A DNA stretch of 64,000 nucleotides from a bacterium (GTDB taxonomy: Bacteria > Zixibacteria > MSB-5A5 > GN15 > FEB-12): NCBI GenBank assembly GCA_043811375.1, contig JBDRNJ010000064.1, forward strand, positions 64,001 through 128,000. Reading direction: 5' to 3'. The first letter of the stretch is position 1, and each line of letters starts with the position of its first letter. A program made the position numbers and the translations under genes. This document shows, in pieces, positions 33,724-46,876 of the stretch. The notes beneath the pieces are model-generated. The model ran no database searches and was not told the DNA's origin. It was given only the letters and a program-made list of their open reading frames with translations.

Positions 33724-35025
33724 ATGATAAAGGTAGCTATGCAGACGATCATTTTGGTGGTCGCAGTACTTATCACGGGCCAGGCGATGGCGGAAACAGA
33801 CGTCAACATCACCGGGCAGGTGAGAGTGCGCTCTGAACTTTCCGATCGGAGCTTCGACTCAACCGCCAAAGCACAGCAGTACACGTATCTGCGCACGCGT
33901 GTCATGGCCGATGCCGCAATAGATGACAACACTCATGCGGTCGTCCAGTTCCAGGACAGCCGTACTCTTGGTGCCGGTGGCTTCTCTGGTGACCACACGA
34001 CTGGTGATGCGAAGAACGTCGATCTGCATCAGGCCTACTTGCAGGTTGATCATCTCTGGGAGAACGGGCCTGGTCTGAAAGCCGGGCGCTTTGAAGTCAA
34101 CCTTGGCAACCAGCGTGTGTTCGGTAGTGTGGGTTGGCATAACGTGGGCCGCTCATGGGAAGGGTTTCAGGCGTGGCTGGACAGGGAGAACGTCAGGTTC
34201 GACGCGTTCTGGCTCAAGAAGATGGAGCTTGATGACGTTACCGGGAACACCGATTACGATATCTTTGGAGCTTATGCCACTATCAAGCCCGCCAATCTGG
34301 ACCTGTTTGCTTTCTTTGAGCATGATGCCTACCAGGACGATTCGACGCCTGTTACCAACGCCCCCACCGGTACCTTCTACTCCCACCACAAGAGGTTAAA
34401 GCGACTCAACCTCGGTCTTCACTATAAACGGACATACCAGCAGTTCGACTTCGATGTCAATGCCGTCTATCAGACCGGCAAAATGCAGCAATGGGATGAG
34501 CCCGTTCCCGATTCGCTGGCATCGGTAGAACATGACATAGCAGCCCTCATGTTCACATTTGAGGGTGGTTACACGTTTGACCGGTCATGCAAGCCGCGGC
34601 TGGGTTTGGGAATCGACTACGCTTCCGGTGACGACAACTTGATCGACACGGACCACAAGGCGTACAACAACCTGTATTACACCGGACATAAATTCCGTGG
34701 TTACATGGACTACTTCCTTGGTTCCGGATCTGAAGGCCTTATGGATGTAATGCTGCGTCTGAAGGTCAACCCGACAGAGGGCTGGACCGTCAAAGGCGAT
34801 TTGCATCTTTTCCGGACGGCCACGGAGTACGCTGATTTCTCCGACACCACCGCGACTACCAGGGATGTTGGCATGGAGTTTGACCTCGGCGTGTCCACAG
34901 TGCGCGTGGCGGGAGTCAATCTGGCAGCTGGTACCAGTGTATTCCTGCCTTCGGAATCATACGTAGGCATGGCCGACCCGGATCCAACATTCTGGAGTTA
35001 CTTCCAGGCGACGGCCAACTTTTGA
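33724..35025 (+). CDS. Alginate-export-family outer membrane porin
   Basis: Signal peptide; GQVRVRSE, QFQDSR, DLHQAY, KAGRF...QRVFG...W.NVGRS; C-terminal Phe. Confidence 0.8.
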   Translation: MIKVAMQTIILVVAVLITGQAMAETDVNITGQVRVRSELSDRSFDSTAKAQQYTYLRTRVMADAAIDDNTHAVVQFQDSRTLGAGGFSGDHTTGDAKNVDLHQAYLQVDHLWENGPGLKAGRFEVNLGNQRVFGSVGWHNVGRSWEGFQAWLDRENVRFDAFWLKKMELDDVTGNTDYDIFGAYATIKPANLDLFAFFEHDAYQDDSTPVTNAPTGTFYSHHKRLKRLNLGLHYKRTYQQFDFDVNAVYQTGKMQQWDEPVPDSLASVEHDIAALMFTFEGGYTFDRSCKPRLGLGIDYASGDDNLIDTDHKAYNNLYYTGHKFRGYMDYFLGSGSEGLMDVMLRLKVNPTEGWTVKGDLHLFRTATEYADFSDTTATTRDVGMEFDLGVSTVRVAGVNLAAGTSVFLPSESYVGMADPDPTFWSYFQATANF

Positions 35026-35093
35026 GGCTGGACCGGGTCGCTGGAGTTGTGTATATTTGATCGAGTTTCGAAGACCATAACAGGAGTTGTGTG

Positions 35094-36428
35094 ATGAAAC
35101 GAATTGCTGGTATTTTGCTGTTGATGCTGTCATTTGCGTCGCTTGCATACGCTGACACTGCACCAACGGTCGCCCAGGTTGCCGGAAAGTGCATGACCTG
35201 CCACAAGGAGAAATCCCCAGGCCTTTATCAGCAGTGGTTTATGTCTCAGCACGCCATGCATAAGGTGACATGTATTGATTGTCATGGTGCTCAGCAGGGC
35301 GACAAGGACGGTTACATGCACGAGGGTGCCCTTATCGCCACCCTGGTGACGCCCAAGGACTGCGGCGCCTGCCATGAGAAAGAGCGCATGGAGGTTGAGA
35401 ATTCCTACCATGCTCATGCCGGCGAGATTCTCGAGTCCGCAGATGCTTATCTGGCTCATGTGGCCGGCGGCGAACCGGTGGCCATCACCGGATGCGAAAG
35501 CTGCCACGGGGGGAAAGTGCAAATCGACCCAGGTTCACCCAACATGCTGTCGAGAAAGAGTTGGCCCAACTCCGGCATCGGGCGACTCAACCCTGATGGC
35601 TCCAAGGGATCATGCAACGCCTGCCACACGCGGCATTCGTTCTCAATCGCCCAGGCTCGCAAGCCGGAAGCGTGTTCCAAGTGTCACCTGGGACCCGACC
35701 ACCCACAGAAGGAAGTGTACGAGGAATCCAAGCATGGTAATGCCTACTACTCGCACATAGATAAAATGAATATCGACTCCGATCGTTGGGTTGTCGGCAT
35801 AGATTACTTTGAGGCTCCGACTTGCGCCACCTGTCATTTATCTGCGACTACATCCACAGCAGTAACACATGACGTTGGCGATAGAATAAGCTGGACACTG
35901 CGACCGCCCGTTTCGAAGCACAAAGACAACTGGCAGGTTAAACGCGCTAACATGAAGACCGTATGCAATACCTGCCACAGCAGCAGTTTCCCGGATGGCC
36001 ACTATTACCAATTCGATGCTCTCGTGAAGCTCTACAACGAAAAATTCGCCAAACCGGCCGGGGAGATCATGAAAATCGTCAAAGAGCGCAAGCTTATGAA
36101 AAGCCCGGCTGCGTTTGGAAACAAGATCGAATGGGTCTACTGGGAGCTATGGCATCATGAAGGTAGACGGGCTCGGCACGGAGCGGCCATGATGGGACCG
36201 GATTACACATGGTGGCACGGCATTTATGACGTCGCCCAGCATTTCTATTTCAAATTGCTTCCTGAGGCTCACAAGTTCAACGATCCCGAGTTGAATGCGT
36301 ATCTTGACAAATTGATCCATGACGATCCCATGCACGCCTGGATAACTACTCCGACTGAAGAACTGAAGGAGAAAATCCGTTCCGGCGAAATGCAAAAGAT
36401 CTATGAAGGTCTTTTCGAACAGAATTAG
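35094..36428 (+). CDS. Octaheme HAO-family cytochrome c
   Basis: Signal peptide; 8 CxxCH motifs; CHLGPDHPQ.E.YEESKHG; HHEGRRARHG; GPDYTWWHG. Confidence 0.88.
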   Translation: MKRIAGILLLMLSFASLAYADTAPTVAQVAGKCMTCHKEKSPGLYQQWFMSQHAMHKVTCIDCHGAQQGDKDGYMHEGALIATLVTPKDCGACHEKERMEVENSYHAHAGEILESADAYLAHVAGGEPVAITGCESCHGGKVQIDPGSPNMLSRKSWPNSGIGRLNPDGSKGSCNACHTRHSFSIAQARKPEACSKCHLGPDHPQKEVYEESKHGNAYYSHIDKMNIDSDRWVVGIDYFEAPTCATCHLSATTSTAVTHDVGDRISWTLRPPVSKHKDNWQVKRANMKTVCNTCHSSSFPDGHYYQFDALVKLYNEKFAKPAGEIMKIVKERKLMKSPAAFGNKIEWVYWELWHHEGRRARHGAAMMGPDYTWWHGIYDVAQHFYFKLLPEAHKFNDPELNAYLDKLIHDDPMHAWITTPTEELKEKIRSGEMQKIYEGLFEQN

Positions 36429-36437
36429 GAGGTCGTC

Positions 36438-37934
36438 TTGTTTGCAAGATACCTCAATTTTGTGCGGGGTGTAGCAACTAATTGGTGGGGACGTCTCGGT
36501 GTAATTATCACCACCTCCTCATTCGTGTGCATGGTGGTGATTGAACTGGCCCGCCTGATTGGCCTGGTCACCAGTTCTTATGCCGGTCTGGTTAGCTATA
36601 TGCTGTTCCCGGCCCTGTTTGTTGTCGGACTGCTGCTGATTCCGATCGGTTGGAGAAAACTCAAGAAACAAACGGGCAAATCGAGCAGGGAGTTGATGGA
36701 GACCGAATTCGGGAAGGAATACGCTGCCGCTTCTTTCGGGGGGGCGCGGCTTTTCCGCACGGTCGGAATCCTGTCGATAGTCAACGTGCTTTTTCTCCTG
36801 GTGATCGGCGCCCGTATGCTGACGTTTATGGACAGCGCCGAGTTCTGCGGTACAGCCTGCCACAGCGTAATGAATCCGGAGTGGGTAACCTACCAGCAAT
36901 CTCCCCACGCCAGAGTGGCCTGTATCGAGTGCCATGTAGGAGAAGGTGCCGAAGCGCTGATTGACAGCAAATTAAACGGTCTCTGGCAGGTGATTTCGGT
37001 GACTTTTGACTTTCTGGAGCGCCCAATTCCGACTCCGGTACATCAGTTACGGCCGGCCCGGGAAACCTGCGAGAAGTGCCACTGGCCTGACAAGTTCTAC
37101 GGCCGGCGGCTTAAGACGATCGCACACTACAGCCACGACTCGGTTTCGACGCCGCTCTACACCACTTTGAGCCTTAAGGTCGATGCCGGCACGTCCCGGG
37201 AACGGGGCGGAATACACTGGCACATAGCTCAGAAGAACGAGGTGCGATACGCCTCGGTAGACGACCAACGAGAGAAGATCGTCTGGGCGGAGGTGAAACG
37301 CGGCGACGGCAACTTCCACCGATACAGTTCGACCGATCCGGCAGTAAGCGGCCAGAACACCGCCTCTGTCAGGACCATGGATTGCGTTGATTGCCACAAC
37401 CGCGCGACCCATATCTATGAGTTACCGGACAGGGCAGTCGACGAACGGATCCAGAATCGTGTTCTGGATCGATCGATGCCGTTCTTAAAACGTGAAGCGC
37501 TGCATGCTGTTTCCGCCGGCTATGCCTCGAGAGAGGCCGCCATGGAGGGTATCGCGAACCATATGAACGGCTTTTACCAGCGCCATTACCCTGACCTGGC
37601 ACGATCACAGGCGACGATACTTGATTCTGTGGTTACGGTCTTGCAGAACATTTACAACCGCAATATCCACCCGGGCATGAATATAGAGTGGGGGTCGTAT
37701 GCCAGTCACATCGGCCACAAGGGAGACAGGGGCTGTTTTCGCTGTCACAATTCTCGTATGGTTGACGATGCAGGCAACAGCATTTCAGATGACTGTGCTC
37801 TATGTCATTCCCTTCTCTCTAACGATCATAAAAACCCGTTCAAGTATCTTCAGCCGGTGGACACTTCCGATGTTGACTATCAGATGCATCAGTATCTTCA
37901 GGATGAGTTCCTGCGATCATTCGGGGATAACTAA
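36438..37934 (+). CDS. NapC/NirT-family membrane-anchored multiheme cytochrome c
   Basis: Three N-terminal TM helices; FCGTACH (CX3CH) plus CIECH, CEKCH, CVDCH, CFRCH, CALCH; GGAGG RBS. Confidence 0.88.
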   Translation: MFARYLNFVRGVATNWWGRLGVIITTSSFVCMVVIELARLIGLVTSSYAGLVSYMLFPALFVVGLLLIPIGWRKLKKQTGKSSRELMETEFGKEYAAASFGGARLFRTVGILSIVNVLFLLVIGARMLTFMDSAEFCGTACHSVMNPEWVTYQQSPHARVACIECHVGEGAEALIDSKLNGLWQVISVTFDFLERPIPTPVHQLRPARETCEKCHWPDKFYGRRLKTIAHYSHDSVSTPLYTTLSLKVDAGTSRERGGIHWHIAQKNEVRYASVDDQREKIVWAEVKRGDGNFHRYSSTDPAVSGQNTASVRTMDCVDCHNRATHIYELPDRAVDERIQNRVLDRSMPFLKREALHAVSAGYASREAAMEGIANHMNGFYQRHYPDLARSQATILDSVVTVLQNIYNRNIHPGMNIEWGSYASHIGHKGDRGCFRCHNSRMVDDAGNSISDDCALCHSLLSNDHKNPFKYLQPVDTSDVDYQMHQYLQDEFLRSFGDN

Positions 37935-41104: not shown

Positions 41105-41485
41105 TTATCCGATCAGTTCCTTGACCTTACTCAGGAGCACATCGCGATCGATTGGTTTCTCCAGGAATGCAGCGGGCGTATTGAGTTGTTTGGTGCGATC
41201 GATAAACCGTTTCAGGTCGGGCGATACGCCGGTACAGATGATGATCGGAATATCCCTGGTTTCTTCGGTATTCTGAAGATTCTTCAGTGCCCGCATGCCT
41301 GATTCCTGGTCCATTGAGATATCGAGTGTCACCAGGTTCGGTTTTTCGCTTTTGGCCAGGGCGAAGGCTTCAGCGCCGTTGACGGCCGATATTGTGGCGT
41401 AGCCGTTATCTTCAAAAAACACCGTCATCCACTCGATTACATCCGACTCATCGTCGACAATGAGTATCTTCTTCGGTTCGGTCAT
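41105..41485 (-). CDS. Single-domain response regulator
   Basis: ILIVDDE; LVTLDISM; IIICTG; LEKP. Confidence 0.92.
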   Translation of the reverse strand: MTEPKKILIVDDESDVIEWMTVFFEDNGYATISAVNGAEAFALAKSEKPNLVTLDISMDQESGMRALKNLQNTEETRDIPIIICTGVSPDLKRFIDRTKQLNTPAAFLEKPIDRDVLLSKVKELIG

Positions 41486-41489
41486 CGTG

Positions 41490-42950
41490 TCATATCTCCT
41501 CGGTTTCGGTGGACTCACTATCAGTTTCAGTGGAAGGTTCGGGTCTCTTGCGCGGCAATTCAACAAAAAACCGGCTGCCTTCCCCAGGTTCGGATTCGAT
41601 CCGGATATTCCCCCCGTGCGACATCACGATTTTGTGGGCGATGAACAGTCCCAGCCCGGTACCGCCGGCGCCTTTCGACGAGAAAAACAGGCTGAACGCT
41701 TTCTCGCGGGTCTCACGGTCCATCCCGATCCCGTTGTCGCTGATAATAAACTGGATACCGTCGTCAAGATCATGTAGTTCGAGCTTAACCAGGTGGTGCG
41801 GTTTGCTTTTGTCGATCCGGCAGGCATCGATGGCGTTCTCAATGAAGTTCACCAGCATGGAGCGGATCATCTGTCGGTCGCCCTCGTATTCGCCGGTGCC
41901 GGTTACCGTGCACTCGACTTCGACTTCTACTTTCCTGGCTCGGTCGGTCATCGTCTTACAGACGTCTTCCAAAATCTCCCCGGCCGAAATCTGCTCCCAG
42001 TTCGGGTCGCGATCCTTGGCGTAATAGAGAATATCCATGACCATCGAACGGATGCGACGGATATTCCTCAAGGCCATATCCCAGCCCTTGTCGACCCGGG
42101 CGGTGTCGTTCTTCTTAATGCCGGAGTTGATCAGATAGATACCGCCGTCGAGACTGTTTAGCAACCCCTTGATACCATGTGACACGGTGCCGATAAGCAT
42201 CCCCACCGACGCCAGTTTATCCTGGAGTTGGCGGATCATCGTGATATTGGTGCTCATCTCGATGACACCTTCGATAACACCCTCGCCGTTGTGTAGGGGA
42301 GCCGTATGCACCAGCACGTTCATTAGCTCTCCCGACTGCGACGAAACAACCTCCTCGTGGTTGCGGGGTTTACCGTCGGTGAAGGTTTGACGCACGGTGC
42401 AGGGCAGACACTCTTTATCCCGATGCTTGTAGATTTCGAAGCACTTTCTGCCATAGCCGGTACCGAAGGTTTCACGATGCAAGCGGTTGGCATCGGTTAT
42501 GTTAAGATCCTGATCCTGAATCGAGATGAAACAGGGAACTTCCTCAAACAGTTGCCGATACTTCCGGCGACTGGTGCGGATATCCATTTGAAGGTCTTTA
42601 AGCAGGGTTATGTCGGTTGACATCTCAATGACTTCCGACACCTCACCGTTGTCGTCGAGAATCGGCGTCGTGTATACCAACACCGAAACCTGCTTGCCAC
42701 CCAGAGTGGTGACCAGCTCTTCGCTGCGGTGCTTCTGGCCATCGGAGAAAGTCCGGGCGACGGGACAATCTTCACATCGCTCGGGCCTTTGTTTGTAGAC
42801 CTGGTAGCAATACCTGTCATTATAGTCGCCGAAATTCCTCCGAAACGAATCATTGGCCTCGATAATCCGGAAGTCACGATCCTGAACGGTCAGATATCCT
42901 GGTATAGCATTGAATATCTTATCCGAAAATCTGCGGCGCTGACGATCCAT
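41490..42950 (-). CDS. Cytoplasmic double-PAS histidine kinase
   Basis: Two PAS repeats, each with a C(Y/F)..YK.R...C..C motif; VSHGIKG H-box; DNGIG and GTGLGL. Confidence 0.9.
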   Translation of the reverse strand: MDRQRRRFSDKIFNAIPGYLTVQDRDFRIIEANDSFRRNFGDYNDRYCYQVYKQRPERCEDCPVARTFSDGQKHRSEELVTTLGGKQVSVLVYTTPILDDNGEVSEVIEMSTDITLLKDLQMDIRTSRRKYRQLFEEVPCFISIQDQDLNITDANRLHRETFGTGYGRKCFEIYKHRDKECLPCTVRQTFTDGKPRNHEEVVSSQSGELMNVLVHTAPLHNGEGVIEGVIEMSTNITMIRQLQDKLASVGMLIGTVSHGIKGLLNSLDGGIYLINSGIKKNDTARVDKGWDMALRNIRRIRSMVMDILYYAKDRDPNWEQISAGEILEDVCKTMTDRARKVEVEVECTVTGTGEYEGDRQMIRSMLVNFIENAIDACRIDKSKPHHLVKLELHDLDDGIQFIISDNGIGMDRETREKAFSLFFSSKGAGGTGLGLFIAHKIVMSHGGNIRIESEPGEGSRFFVELPRKRPEPSTETDSESTETEEI

Positions 42951-42984
42951 CGCTTACCTCTCTGCAACCTGGTGTAAGTTGACC

Positions 42985-44742
42985 TTACTCGGTAGCAATC
43001 AGTTTAAAGATCTTCCTCACATTCAAGAGGATACTCTCTTCATCAACCGGTTTGTTAAGGTAACCTTCCGGCGGAGGTCCCGGTCGATCATATATTAACT
43101 GTCTCATCTCCGGTTTGCCGGTGATAATGCAGACCGGAATCTGTGAGGTCTCGTCGGTTTTCCGCAACAGCTCAAACACTTCGATTCCCGACTTGCCCGG
43201 CATCGAAATGTCCAGTGTAATGAGATCGGGCTTTTCGGTCTTTGCCATATCGAAGGCTTCATTGCCATCGGTCGCTCTGAGCACGGTTGCGCCGTTGTCC
43301 TCCAGCACGGTGGAAACGAAGGTAACAAAATCCGGCTCGTCGTCGGCTACCAGAATCCGGTAACCGGCCAGCGCGGTCGCTTCGGCCACCACCGGCGCTA
43401 CTTCAGCAGGTGCTTCTTCAACCTTGGGTTCAGTGACCAGAGCATTGGCGACCAGGTTTACAAGTTGGGCAATCCCTAAGTCGAGTTTGTAATGCTTGAT
43501 CAGGTCGGCCAATCCGTCGACACAATTATGGCACGAAGTCACGACAATCTTGGCCCCAGTGGCTGTGAGCTGGTCAGCCTTGATCTTGGCCGACTTCAAC
43601 CTCCGGGGCGTATATTCGGACATCGACATAGCCCCGCCACCCCCGGTACAACAATAGTTTTCGGCCCGGTTGGGATACATCTCACGGAAATCCGCACAGA
43701 CCAGATTCAGTAGTTCGCGGGGTTCTTCATACAGCCCGCAACTCCTGGCATTATTGCACGAATCGTGAAAGGTTACTGGAATTGAATTCTTGGACTTGTC
43801 AACTTTGATCCGCCCCTCCTTGATATAGCGAATCATCGTGATGACCGAACTCTCCATCACGAAATCATTGACATCCATGCCCGCCCAGTTGGGACCCTCA
43901 CATCGGGTGGAGCGGTAACCATGCCCGCACTCCGAGATCACCAGGGTTTTTCCTCGGAGTTCGGAGGTTTTTTCATAGAGTCGACGCGCTACTGCGCCCC
44001 CCAGGTCATCATCACCTGAGAATAAACCGAAATTGGTCATATCCCAGTGCTCGCTTGGCATGGTCCAATTCTCACCGGCGGCATAGAATATCTTGGCGGC
44101 GTCGGAAATAGTGCGCGGGTCATACTTCACTTCCCTGGGATTGATCGAGTAGACCACCTCGCAGTCCGGCTTATCGATAGGGATGGTGGCTCGGGGGTCC
44201 CCCATTTCCATCTCAAGTTCTTCACCCAGCCACTCGAGCGTTTCCACATAGTCCTCTTTGAGTACGCCCATCTGGTTGCCCAACTCCCATTGATCCTTGG
44301 AGACCACCGCCACGCCCTCGGGCATCACCCCGACCGAAACCAGCAGGCCTCGTGCCATCCGGTTGAAAGTCGCATAATCCACGCCCATGGGACAGTTGAT
44401 AGAACACCGCCGACAATTGGTACACTTGCCGAAGACGATGTCTTTCAGATCCTCCAGGTCCTGGTCCGTATATATGCTCTTGGCATGAACCCACCAGGGG
44501 AATACCCGGCCGGTCCAATCGAAGTGACGCTTGAATATCCTGCGGATGCGATCGGCCTTGTAAGCCGGAGCGTAGGAGGGATCATCAGGATTGGCTAACA
44601 CATAGTGACACATATTGGTGCAGTTGCCACAATGGACACAGGCCACCATGGAACCCACTATCTGACGGTTGAGTTTCTTTTCAAAACGCTCAAGTACCTT
44701 CTGGGCTTTGTAGGATCGCTTGGTATTACCATTACTCATCAT
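42985..44742 (-). CDS. HmcF/TmcB/DsrK-like Fe-S (CCG-domain) oxidoreductase fused to a C-terminal receiver domain
   Basis: CVHCGNCTNMC, CTNCRRCSINCP; SECGHG; FHDSC..CCTGGGG..SCHNC; then ILVADDE..LITLDISMP..ITG..NKP. Confidence 0.85.
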   Translation of the reverse strand: MMSNGNTKRSYKAQKVLERFEKKLNRQIVGSMVACVHCGNCTNMCHYVLANPDDPSYAPAYKADRIRRIFKRHFDWTGRVFPWWVHAKSIYTDQDLEDLKDIVFGKCTNCRRCSINCPMGVDYATFNRMARGLLVSVGVMPEGVAVVSKDQWELGNQMGVLKEDYVETLEWLGEELEMEMGDPRATIPIDKPDCEVVYSINPREVKYDPRTISDAAKIFYAAGENWTMPSEHWDMTNFGLFSGDDDLGGAVARRLYEKTSELRGKTLVISECGHGYRSTRCEGPNWAGMDVNDFVMESSVITMIRYIKEGRIKVDKSKNSIPVTFHDSCNNARSCGLYEEPRELLNLVCADFREMYPNRAENYCCTGGGGAMSMSEYTPRRLKSAKIKADQLTATGAKIVVTSCHNCVDGLADLIKHYKLDLGIAQLVNLVANALVTEPKVEEAPAEVAPVVAEATALAGYRILVADDEPDFVTFVSTVLEDNGATVLRATDGNEAFDMAKTEKPDLITLDISMPGKSGIEVFELLRKTDETSQIPVCIITGKPEMRQLIYDRPGPPPEGYLNKPVDEESILLNVRKIFKLIATE

Positions 44743-44769
44743 GTTCTCCATTCGTTTTCTGCCCAAAGG

Positions 44770-45453
44770 CTACTTGCGCGGTTCTGGGGCATGGGTAACA
44801 GGGTAAACTCCGCGGTACCCCATAGTCTTGCCAAAATAGTAACGTGTTATCGGGTAGTACAGGTAGTGTGATATTTTGCTGAAGGGTACATAGATCAGGA
44901 AAAAGGCGGTCAGGATGAAATAGGTCAGCAAGACGCCCTCGCCATCTTGGTAGTTATTCGGAACTGCCAGAGCAGCAAAGAAGAACCAGATGGTAAGCAA
45001 TATCAGCGAGAAATAGTCATCCGGGCTACTGATCGCACGCATGTGCTTGTCACTTGCTCTTCTAATTATGCGAAGAATACCGACCAGGCAGGAGGCACCA
45101 ATGATAACCTGAAGAATTGGAACAACCAAAGGTACTTCCAGCAGTCGCGGCAGGTAAGGAATAACAAATGAAAGGGCGATGGCGACCGCAACTCCCAGAT
45201 GGAACACAACGAACTGCAGGTATATAAGAAACCTCGTGCGCGAGCTTTCCATCGACCAGGGCATGGCAATGTTAGCCCAGGAATACAGGATACCTCTTTT
45301 CATAGTTGTTCCGGGCATTCCTGTTTCCGGTTGACGATCGCGACCGGCTTTGAATCTGAACAACCAAACGAGACGCAGGATATAGACGATGGCCATGATA
45401 GCCAAAGCCACTTCCTGGAGAGTATGTTCTGAAAAGTGAAGAAAATCGCTCAT
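44770..45453 (-). CDS. NarI/HmcE/TmcC-like membrane anchor subunit
   Basis: About five TM helices; FHLG; R.IS.PDDY; PFSKISH. Confidence 0.75.
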   Translation of the reverse strand: MSDFLHFSEHTLQEVALAIMAIVYILRLVWLFRFKAGRDRQPETGMPGTTMKRGILYSWANIAMPWSMESSRTRFLIYLQFVVFHLGVAVAIALSFVIPYLPRLLEVPLVVPILQVIIGASCLVGILRIIRRASDKHMRAISSPDDYFSLILLTIWFFFAALAVPNNYQDGEGVLLTYFILTAFFLIYVPFSKISHYLYYPITRYYFGKTMGYRGVYPVTHAPEPRK

Positions 45454-45469
45454 TATCTGCTCTCCTTAG

Positions 45470-46000
45470 TTACTTCAGACTCTCTAGCTTATTCTGAAAC
45501 GGTTTGTACTCATGATGATCCCAGAGACAAACGAGCACTTCTTCCAGGCAGGTCTGATTCTCAAGGAAGGAGACAATCGTTTCCAGGGTGAGTTCGGCGC
45601 TCTGGTTCAAGGGCACGCCATAGAATCCGTAGCCCATTGGGGGAAAGGCTATCCTTTTGATACCTTTCTCCTCGGCCAGTTTGAGAGCATTGACAATCGT
45701 CGCTCTGAGCTTGTCAGGTGTGCCCTCTTCCTGGAACTTGGGACCGTTGGCATGAATTATATACTTGGCCTTCATTTCGCCGGCTTCGGTGATAACGCAT
45801 TCATTGGGTGCCAGGGGACCCATTTTATCAAGTATCTTTTGTATCGAAGGACCGCCCCGCACGGCAATCGCACCCCCGTAACCGGAACCGAGTTTCAAAT
45901 CGGATTGGGCGTAGTAAACGAAGCATTCCGCATCGGTGTCGGTTACGTCGCACCGTTCCAGTCGTATGACACTCCGGTTGACCTGTTTCTCATCTGCCAT
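45470..46000 (-). CDS. Macrodomain protein (divergent)
   Basis: GAIAVRGG..IQ; VITEAG.M.AKYIIHANGP; IAFPPMG.GFYG.P. Confidence 0.85.
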   Translation of the reverse strand: MADEKQVNRSVIRLERCDVTDTDAECFVYYAQSDLKLGSGYGGAIAVRGGPSIQKILDKMGPLAPNECVITEAGEMKAKYIIHANGPKFQEEGTPDKLRATIVNALKLAEEKGIKRIAFPPMGYGFYGVPLNQSAELTLETIVSFLENQTCLEEVLVCLWDHHEYKPFQNKLESLK

Positions 46001-46020
46001 ACTGCTACCTTTCGTTGTAT

Positions 46021-46821
46021 CTACACATTCTGTTGTTCTGCAAGTTTGGGGACTCCCCGGATACAATTCTTCAGTTGTTCAATCGTAAATGGTTTCTTTA
46101 TCCACCCAAAGATTTCTTGATCGCAATAGTCCTTAATCTTCATGACCCGTGATGACAGTATGAGCCGCGGAACCGGGATACGAATATCAGAAAACAGATT
46201 GCTGCAGATCTCGGCCGTCCGGCGTTTTCCGAAGGCGCAGTCGACAATGATATAGTCGGGTCGAAAACTCTGGATCAGGGTCGCTGTCTCGTATTCACCG
46301 GTTGCGAACCGGACTTCAATACCCTCACTTACCCCGGAGCCCTGCAGGTCAGATATCAGTTTACCGCTACGAACCAGGGCGATCACATTTATGCCCTGAC
46401 CCTGAACCGTTTGGTAGTAGTTACACTCGGGGCACTCGGTGTCGCACATGAGGTTGAGACAGCCCAATCCGCCGGGCAGGTCCTTCAACTCGTAGCAACG
46501 CCGCGCTCGCGAACGAAACGTTATGCAGTCGCGACACTCTTCCTTGATCTCACCGCCGGCTGCCAGAAACTCCCAGCAGTATTGATGTGCCGCCGGCCGC
46601 GATGACAACTGTTCCCAGTCAACGGTGATCGGAGTTTCGGATGCGAACGAGCTCAACTCAGACACAGGGATCCGGAAATGACCTCCCAGGGTCCGGCGTG
46701 ACTTCACTTTACCGGCCTTGACCCATTTGAGGACGGTGTCCGGCGATACACACAGAAGTTTGGCCGCTTCGGTAGTCGTCAGGTAATCTCTGCTTCTGAA
46801 TTCGTCAGGCATTTCTGTCAT
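46021..46821 (-). CDS. Excisionase/BldC-type HTH regulator with Cys-rich central domain and atypical receiver domain
   Basis: LTTTEAAKLLCVSPDTVLKW...TLGGHFRI; CWEF..CRDC..C..C..CDTECPEC; RPDYIIVD...KKPF. Confidence 0.82.
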   Translation of the reverse strand: MTEMPDEFRSRDYLTTTEAAKLLCVSPDTVLKWVKAGKVKSRRTLGGHFRIPVSELSSFASETPITVDWEQLSSRPAAHQYCWEFLAAGGEIKEECRDCITFRSRARRCYELKDLPGGLGCLNLMCDTECPECNYYQTVQGQGINVIALVRSGKLISDLQGSGVSEGIEVRFATGEYETATLIQSFRPDYIIVDCAFGKRRTAEICSNLFSDIRIPVPRLILSSRVMKIKDYCDQEIFGWIKKPFTIEQLKNCIRGVPKLAEQQNV

Positions 46822-46847
46822 TTCTGAGTTTTCTGAGTTTCTATTAA

Positions 46848-46876
46848 TTTATAAGAACAAGTGTGGTTTCTGTCAA
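46848..46876 (-). promoter_or_regulatory. sigma70 promoter of the 46821-41105 operon
   Basis: TTGACA-N17-TATAAA on the minus strand. Confidence 0.7.

Follow-up and report, generated by a model that had tools for sequence, protein, structure and literature searches.

The 64,000-nucleotide stretch of Zixibacteria contig JBDRNJ010000064.1 analysed here (assembly GCA_043811375.1, positions 64,001 to 128,000; hereafter the window) carries on its minus strand, at 41105-46821, six open reading frames (ORFs) separated by gaps of about 4-34 bases. Their central product is an iron-sulfur (Fe-S) protein related to HmcF, TmcB, and DsrK and fused to a response-regulator receiver domain; around it lie a membrane anchor, a macrodomain protein, a histidine kinase, a second receiver, and a transcriptional regulator. 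With domain and family calls taken from the cut-offs of the Pfam and NCBIfam models, the locus reads as follows.

46876-46848, minus strand: sigma-70-type promoter candidate, TTGACA (46876-46871), 17 bases, TATAAA (46853-46848)
46847-46812, minus strand: four 9-bp direct repeats with the core CAGAA, spanning the leader and the start codon
46821 (or ATG at 46812)-46021, minus strand: helix-turn-helix (HTH) regulator, HTH_17 with an unnamed cysteine-rich domain and a degenerate receiver
46000-45470, minus strand: macrodomain gene (Pfam Macro)
45453-44770, minus strand: membrane anchor gene, a five-helix NarI/HmcE/TmcC-like protein with no Pfam family
44742 (or TTG at 44766)-42985, minus strand: Fe-S-receiver fusion gene, Fer4_8, CCG, and Response_reg in 585 residues
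42950-41490, minus strand: double-PAS histidine kinase gene, two PAS_4 domains and HATPase_c
41485-41105, minus strand: stand-alone receiver gene (Response_reg), best match the DVU0259 family

The initial annotation described six tightly spaced genes behind a single promoter, and this arrangement holds: the ORFs share one strand, and TTGAC stands at the matching upstream position in 16 of 17 other HTH homologues examined. A consensus scan missed the TTGACA-17-TATAAA candidate because its -10 rule demands a final T; it placed another site at 46937-46910, and its total of four sites, against a shuffle mean of 5.9, is no excess. A terminator-like hairpin (47000-46977) parts the candidate from the gene upstream.

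The fusion is neither unique to this assembly nor an artefact of it. Its Fer4_8 (residues 33-121), CCG (323-407), and Response_reg (463-574) domains each score above cut-off, and a domain-architecture search found PF02754 together with PF00072 in all 120 homologues listed (at least 120 exist), which are 77-92% identical. Scanning GTDB genomes gave 116 confirmed relatives, the best 80 of which underlie the locus counts below and are labelled Zixibacteria, Ignavibacteria, Planctomycetota, Acidobacteriota, Myxococcota, Thermodesulfobacteriota, Nitrospirota, Aminicenantes, and others. These labels are not fully reliable, because two loci labelled Ignavibacteria (L014 and L015) share contig coordinates with genomes of our own-phylum sample; they are counted in both sets. 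Across the phyla the gene set is kept: the macrodomain gene lies beside the anchor gene, both ahead of the Fe-S gene, in 66 of the 69 loci whose flanks are long enough; in the other three the anchor gene stands there alone. Median identity of the core is 78% over 41 loci.

Conservation extends to the residues on which chemistry and signalling would depend. Both ferredoxin motifs, the SECGH motif, and five CCG cysteines (C329, C364, C365, C404, and C407) are invariant in 65/65 fusions, and the accessible part of PMC10861901 assigns the same set of five-cysteine CCG domain, ECGH cysteine, and two ferredoxin motifs to DsrK, HmcF, and TmcB and reports menadiol:DsrC-trisulfide activity for DsrMKJOP. 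The fused receiver, already described as intact, retains everything expected of a phosphorylatable domain: the acidic pair D467 and D468, the phosphoacceptor D511, and K564 are invariant in all 65 aligned fusions, and position 541 is threonine in 61 and serine in four. T541 is followed by a conserved surface motif, GxPE..R..IY.R. The domain is joined to the Fe-S part by a linker of alanine, glutamate, valine, and proline with a median length of 31 residues (range 16-75).

No description of such a fusion (HmcF, TmcB, or DsrK with a receiver or response regulator) was found in the literature, nor, among the papers listed, of a macrodomain with DsrK or DsrC or of a receiver or macro domain with Hdr or CCG proteins, subscription papers lying outside the coverage of these searches; the accessible part of a study of DsrMK phylogeny (PMC10504309) contains no such fusion. 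No paper describing the module turned up, in keeping with its first description as plausibly uncharacterised. The combination of the fusion, the macrodomain, and a one-heme anchor is the new element.

By its Fe-S part the protein belongs near HmcF (314 bits, cut-off 750), TmcB (298, cut-off 735), and DsrK (239.7, cut-off 400), below the cut-off in every case. In a maximum-likelihood tree of 43 rows (a hand-chosen subset; LG+G4, rooted on the genome's DsrK, support as SH-aLRT/bootstrap), with true HmcF and TmcB identified by model cut-off (true TmcB being L119 and L122), the module proteins form their own clade (95.5/98). Its sister group is HmcF plus TmcB (99.8/100), and the two together (99.6/100) stand apart from DsrK and from three other paralogue types of the genome. 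A 91-row quick-search tree, which carried long-branch warnings, gives the same grouping. The deepest members (L089, L090, and L043, the exact place of the last being modestly supported) are unfused and have no macrodomain, and because of this the receiver fusion and the macrodomain were likely added after the Fe-S clade arose. In L043 (5146-9323) genes resembling universal-stress and HEAT-repeat proteins, both named by eye, and a divergent Rrf2 gene occupy the macrodomain slot.

The anchor departs further from its known relatives. It matches the TmcC (42.9 bits, cut-off 240) and HmcE (41.9, cut-off 275) models weakly and DsrM not at all at E<=0.01, and H85 and H196 are its only invariant histidines (73/73). 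In Escherichia coli NarI, H56 and H205 ligate the proximal heme and H66 and H187 the distal heme (PMC5338063). Aligned to NarI, H85 corresponds to H56, and NarI H66 falls on a serine (a weak match, E 0.028); in the region equivalent to H66, one of the scorable rows has histidine, and across 73 rows histidine is not a leading residue of those columns. The equivalent of H187, a histidine 18 residues before the last one, is found in 0/72 module anchors but in 32/32 HmcE/TmcC-like proteins and 3/3 DsrM proteins (this count omits five sequences that lack the anchor motif, including one module anchor). A structure model (predicted local distance difference test, pLDDT, 85) has NarI and then EtfD (E 0.33) as its best fold matches; a Foldseek search returned none at E<=0.001. 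The annotation of a NarI/HmcE-like anchor is therefore right as to kinship, with the addition that this is not a normal di-heme HmcE or DsrM: the four histidines and two b hemes of DsrM, HmcE, and TmcC are not present, and by its ligand pattern the anchor has only a predicted cytoplasm-side (proximal) heme site. Separately, a wider family of NarI-like anchors (P0121-P0270) with only the proximal histidine pair, often with PFGKxRH, reaches beyond the module.

Since both distal-heme histidines are gone, the sequence excludes a heme wire across the membrane and with it a redox loop, which fits the absence of a periplasmic partner. The initial annotation had noted that the operon encodes no periplasmic cytochrome, and neither a Hmc/Tmc-type periplasmic cytochrome nor an extra Hmc/Tmc-type subunit is present in the six genes or among the neighbour families found in at least 5 of the 80 loci. 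The multiheme cytochrome genes of the window (35091-37934) lie 3-6 kb from the operon on the opposite strand and are likewise not among the neighbour families common to at least five loci. These observations tell on one rival explanation, that the module supplies the cytoplasmic side of a membrane-spanning conduit of the Hmc/Tmc type, with periplasmic partners encoded at other loci, and that the receiver fusion is a neutral joining of operon neighbours. The sister relationship to HmcF and TmcB, the receiver genes that adjoin hmcF, and the presence in the genome of multiheme cytochromes and an HmcC-like gene would agree with it, but the lack of distal-heme ligands and of any periplasmic partner among conserved neighbours does not, nor does a fused receiver that is invariant at every phosphorylation residue, only 23-26% like the receiver behind hmcF, and lost together with the kinase. 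We consider such a conduit very unlikely. The cytochromes themselves belong to a plus-strand set at 33724-37934, in which a porin gene of the alginate-export type stands ahead of two multiheme cytochrome c genes (Multi-haem_cyto; NapC/NirT-like), possibly a porin-cytochrome or a nitrogen- or sulfur-oxyanion reductase set; Crp/Fnr-like and ferredoxin-like genes, both named by eye, precede it.

The kinase and the fused receiver behave as a pair, as the first description of the module implied. Where the core is complete and at least 1.2 kb of downstream sequence is available (74 loci), a fused receiver and an adjacent kinase occur together in 68; six have neither, and none has one alone. In the tree, the loss in L046 and its sister L049 falls inside the fused forms (100/100); two more losses, in L021 and L041, are weakly placed. 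These four loci keep the core and macrodomain, and such survival without receiver and kinase fits an enzyme with an added switch and speaks against a pure sensor. In L021 (6513-7868) the receiver and kinase are gone after an early stop. The kinase has two PAS_4 domains, a HATPase_c domain, and the predicted phosphorylation site H258, and is soluble, with no hydrophobic or membrane segment. C48, C59, C62, C140, C170, C181, C184, and H258 are invariant in 64/64 kinases, each PAS domain carrying C-x10-C-x2-C in all 64, with H74 (61/64) and C140 (64/64) as possible fourth ligands. The PAS pair, modelled confidently as a tandem PAS (pLDDT 92), matches no PDB sequence (best E 0.012), and its cysteines are predicted to form metal or Fe-S sites. 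The closest analogy is NreB, a soluble kinase in which three conserved PAS cysteines bind an Fe-S cluster and which senses sulfide or oxygen (PMC13478379, accessible part); this likeness is an analogy only, because the cysteine motif there, CX2CX11C(X2C), differs from the CX10CX2C of both module domains, which fall outside the NreB pattern.

A stand-alone receiver follows the kinase in 45 of 57 loci with a kinase and enough flank. It is less conserved than the fused receiver in 39/41 loci (median identity 41% vs 61%), and both receivers have NF045717 (DVU0259_DivK) as their best NCBIfam match, below cut-off (101 bits against 160 for the stand-alone one). DVU0258-0260 presumably lie in the tmc operon; the term DVU0259 did not occur in the papers listed for it. 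The fused receiver is new, but receiver genes as neighbours of such complexes are not, since they already exist beside hmcE-hmcF in L099 and L100, where a receiver gene and an Rrf2 gene lie downstream, and in an Hmc-like operon on contig C2 of the same genome. We take the downstream pair of L099 and L100 to be rrf1/rrf2. A derivation of the fusion from hmcF plus rrf1 was rejected: the module receivers are 23-27% identical to those of L099 and L100, compared with 40-54% for the DVU0259 type.

Much of this evidence bears on the main rival explanation, in which the module is a redox sensor whose anchor and Fe-S core read the redox state of DsrC or quinone and signal that state to the kinase by way of the tethered receiver, acting as scaffold or phosphate sink, with the stand-alone receiver as output. 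In its favour, regulatory genes make up four of the six, the anchor has lost its distal heme site, and the fused receiver is the better conserved of the two in 39 of 41 loci, with its conserved surface after T541. However, 6 of 74 loci keep the core with neither kinase nor receiver, 12 of 57 have no stand-alone receiver after the kinase (some of these have a receiver elsewhere in the locus), the cassette has no DNA-binding response regulator with an intact receiver, and the kinase has its own cysteine-PAS input. We regard the sensor as doubtful.

The remaining two genes encode the macrodomain and the HTH protein. The macrodomain (Pfam Macro, E 3.4e-25), for which the Atlas returned only Macro clusters, lacks the NAAN motif of MacroD-type ADP-ribose hydrolases in 64/64 sequences, with bulky residues (YYAQ, FYAR, or FDIT) in its place; the genome's other macrodomain retains NAAN. 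The aspartate of GD[IL]T, which we take to be the adenine-side residue, is kept in 63/64, and the glycine-rich loops are kept too. NAAN lines the distal-ribose site (PMC7729036, accessible part), and the module protein is likely a non-hydrolytic binder of an adenine nucleotide without a distal ribose; our guesses for the ligand are adenosine 5'-phosphosulfate (APS), ADP, or AMP. The HTH protein (HTH_17, E 6.5e-12) scores 44.1 bits against NCBIfam HTH_BldC, under the cut-off of 77, and so falls outside the BldC family proper. It was first annotated as an HTH, cysteine-rich, and receiver protein: the HTH and the cysteine-rich domain are confirmed, the latter with seven cysteines (C82, C96, C99, C109, C126, C130, and C133) invariant in 19/19 and no family in the Atlas, but the receiver is degenerate (Pfam 24.5 bits vs a cut-off of 30.2), its first strand having no acidic pair.

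The first slot of the operon is variable. An HTH protein lies directly upstream in 13/65 loci, and 36/80 contain Rrf2-like genes, which mostly encode three cysteines and often sit immediately ahead of the macrodomain gene. The four repeats at the promoter are of the kind that BldC binds, 9-bp direct repeats arranged head to tail (PMC5859096, accessible part). A period of 9 is the best in 14 of 18 upstream regions, a fifteenth (L057) shows it by the spacing of CAGAA, and the other three belong to HTH genes that are not directly before a macrodomain gene. A strict triple-repeat motif occurs once in the genome (0, 1, and 0 times in shuffles), so that the strict pattern revealed no wider HTH regulon there. 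From their position and period, the repeats are likely an operator through which the HTH protein represses its own operon. A paralogue of the regulator (35%) with its own 9-bp repeats is encoded on contig C7 (18837-23340, L125), upstream of dsrC, a four-histidine DsrM-like/DsrK-like pair, and a tandem DsrC-DsrC protein.

Although the operon has no dsrC gene, as first noted, the genome has six DsrC-family matches, one of them within the dsrAB-dsrMKJOP cluster on contig C39, and the absence of dsrC does not extend beyond the operon. The genome encodes dsrA (above cut-off), dsrB, dsrC, and true DsrM and DsrK (above cut-offs) on C39, a contig other than that of the module, and aprA on C40; DsrD was not found, in a search that also returned no positive-control match. 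Among 251 genomes of the same phylum (dsrA match at E<=1e-50, fusion match at E<=1e-150), 92 have dsrA, 51 the fusion, and 49 both, so that the suggested co-occurrence is borne out for dsrA, and the fusion is found in only 2 of 159 dsrA-negative genomes. One of these two is the genome of L021 (G173, by coordinates). A macrodomain profile matched 47 of the 251 genomes, 45 of them fusion carriers. In a further sample of 50 genomes, hand-picked from the 80 loci and mostly labelled as other phyla, dsrA was found in 46 and not in L052, L089, L090, and L091, whose completeness was not given. These counts include kin and are not independent. Within the 10 kb of flank fetched, dsrAB adjoins the module in 6 of 80 loci. 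Because 43 of the 92 dsrA genomes lack a module match and the genome has a true DsrM and DsrK, the module is best seen as an accessory to the Dsr pathway.

The same distribution can be read in favour of a third rival, a regulated thiol/persulfide or oxidative-stress reductase of Dsr bacteria whose substrate is not DsrC itself but, for example, a tandem DsrC-like protein or a small thiol. The deepest relatives come from genomes that gave no dsrA match, two tandem DsrC-domain proteins are encoded in the genome, a three-cysteine Rrf2 protein alternates with the HTH protein in the regulator slot, and Hmc has been reported as important for oxygen survival in D. alaskensis (PMC4215793, accessible part); yet the fused form is nearly confined to dsrA genomes, and the module lies inside dsr clusters in six loci. 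We judge this alternative distinctly unlikely. The second of the tandem DsrC-domain proteins (C84:91979-92629) is encoded inside a cluster of hydrogenase and hyp genes.

The reading we tentatively prefer, though we put it at somewhat under even chances, is that the operon encodes a phosphorylation-gated, non-proton-pumping oxidoreductase between quinone and a DsrC-type thiol, a side route beside DsrMKJOP. It builds on what can be observed directly in the sequences: the cofactor motifs, the loss of the distal histidines, the intact receiver and kinase residues, the gene linkage, and the co-occurrence with dsrA. Quinone would react near the single cytoplasm-side heme, so that protons would stay inside and no redox loop would form. 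Two [4Fe-4S] clusters would relay electrons to a non-cubane cluster and the ECGH cysteine, on the pattern of DsrK, and the substrate would be DsrC, as trisulfide or dithiol, in one direction or the other. The cysteine-PAS kinase would sense redox state, sulfide, or oxygen through a bound metal or Fe-S cluster and phosphorylate D511, switching the enzyme or its partner contacts; the non-hydrolytic macrodomain would report an adenine nucleotide to the complex; and transcription from the promoter repeats would be set by the HTH protein or, in other phyla, by an Rrf2 protein. Under changing redox conditions the whole might act as a valve alongside DsrMKJOP, which conserves energy. The interpretation first offered stands as to the gene set and the pairing of kinase and receiver, and has to be amended by the tie to Dsr and the one-heme type of anchor.

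Several observations weigh against this oxidoreductase. There is no dsrC in the operon, and the ancestral substrate need not be DsrC, because the genomes of the deepest members L089 and L090 gave no dsrA match. A receiver linker of such variable length does not imply allosteric control of the Fe-S core. The kinase co-diverges more closely with the fused than with the stand-alone receiver (partial r 0.76 vs 0.30), but this depends on two loci, without which the two receivers score alike (0.54 vs 0.51), and a quinone site at the proximal heme is only putative. None of 51 scorable full-length distant anchors (19 of 70 being unscorable) has the H187 equivalent, nor does the genome's DsrM-like protein on contig C90, and the one-heme trait is, on these alignments, older than the module; the idea that such an anchor is unique to the module was rejected on the same count. 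Also rejected was the idea that a single heme precludes a quinone reaction: in Mycobacterium smegmatis EtfD (EMO; PDB 9OJN) a NarI-like domain without a distal heme is described as passing electrons to menaquinone with no link to the proton gradient (bioRxiv 10.64898/2026.08.18.745454, accessible part). EtfD, whose entry is the only non-receiver PDB match of the Fe-S protein among the 60 matches listed (E 6e-12), likewise combines a proximal-heme-only NarI-like domain with CCG Fe-S domains, but it is a single polypeptide fed by the electron-transfer flavoprotein ETF, with four Fe-S clusters, and the accessible part of its description mentions no receiver, kinase, or macrodomain.

How the module relates to other membrane CCG systems can be stated more closely. 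Like HmcE/HmcF of the Desulfovibrio-type hmc operon, it has an anchor-then-Fe-S gene pair with the NxRExK..P..I motif, and receiver and Rrf2 genes keep company with both; unlike them, it scores below the model cut-offs, forms a separate clade, has no HmcABCD and an anchor without either distal histidine, fuses a receiver of the DVU0259 type, and adds a macrodomain and a cysteine-PAS kinase. It resembles TmcB/TmcC in its model matches and in the family of its receivers, but it has no TmcA cytochrome or TmcD, true TmcB branches apart, and TmcC-like anchors keep the distal histidine that module anchors have lost. With DsrMK of DsrMKJOP it shares two ferredoxin motifs, one CCG domain, the ECGH cysteine, a NarI-like partner, and co-occurrence with dsrAB (PMC10861901, accessible part), whereas its Fe-S protein is 27% identical to the genome's own DsrK (240 bits with the DsrK model vs 400), DsrM is di-heme, JOP are missing, and DsrK has no receiver; the module should not be annotated as dsrMK. 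The dsrM2/dsrK2 genes of peat Acidobacteria, listed without a function, are another DsrMK-like pair upstream of dsrAB (PMC6018796, accessible part), with products of 256-330 and 477-537 residues compared with 227 and 430-585 for the module. Identity with this published pair is not favoured, by length alone.

Two further operons of the genome bear on this comparison. The DsrM/DsrK-like pair on C90 (8446-10990, L127), whose 312-residue anchor is without distal histidines, is by length like dsrM2/dsrK2 and fits that pair better than the module does; its relatives adjoin the module in 8 of 80 loci. The Hmc-like operon on C2 (3373-11512, L124) encodes a CCG Fe-S protein in which the first ferredoxin cysteine is replaced (ISTKCSRC), a four-histidine TmcC-like anchor, an HmcC-like protein of 630 residues, three receivers, a small cysteine-rich protein, and a double cysteine-PAS kinase paralogous to that of the module (35%; receivers 54% and 42%). 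Operons of this type abut the module in L032, L079, L080, and L082.

The module may bear on how sulfite-respiring bacteria control electron flow. A stronger form of the proposal, which we think unlikely, casts it as a dedicated point of control in sulfite respiration, the third membrane module to react with DsrC, reduced to one heme and thereby uncoupled, and switched directly on the enzyme by two-component phosphorylation and by a non-hydrolytic macrodomain that reads an adenylate (such as APS, ADP, or AMP). Were this so, uncultured, facultative sulfate reducers in seven or more phyla could open or shut a bypass of DsrMKJOP within seconds. If the more general reading of a phosphorylation-gated oxidoreductase holds, the module would be an example of a respiratory redox enzyme under post-translational control and a natural, uncoupled counterpart of DsrMKJOP, assayable by an existing method. 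About half of the dsrA-bearing genomes sampled in the phylum (49/92) carry it. The coupling of DsrC reduction to energy conservation and the roles of DsrK-like paralogues are posed as open questions in the accessible parts of PMC10861901 and PMC6018796, and the module offers in addition a new cysteine-PAS sensor motif and a macrodomain subfamily.

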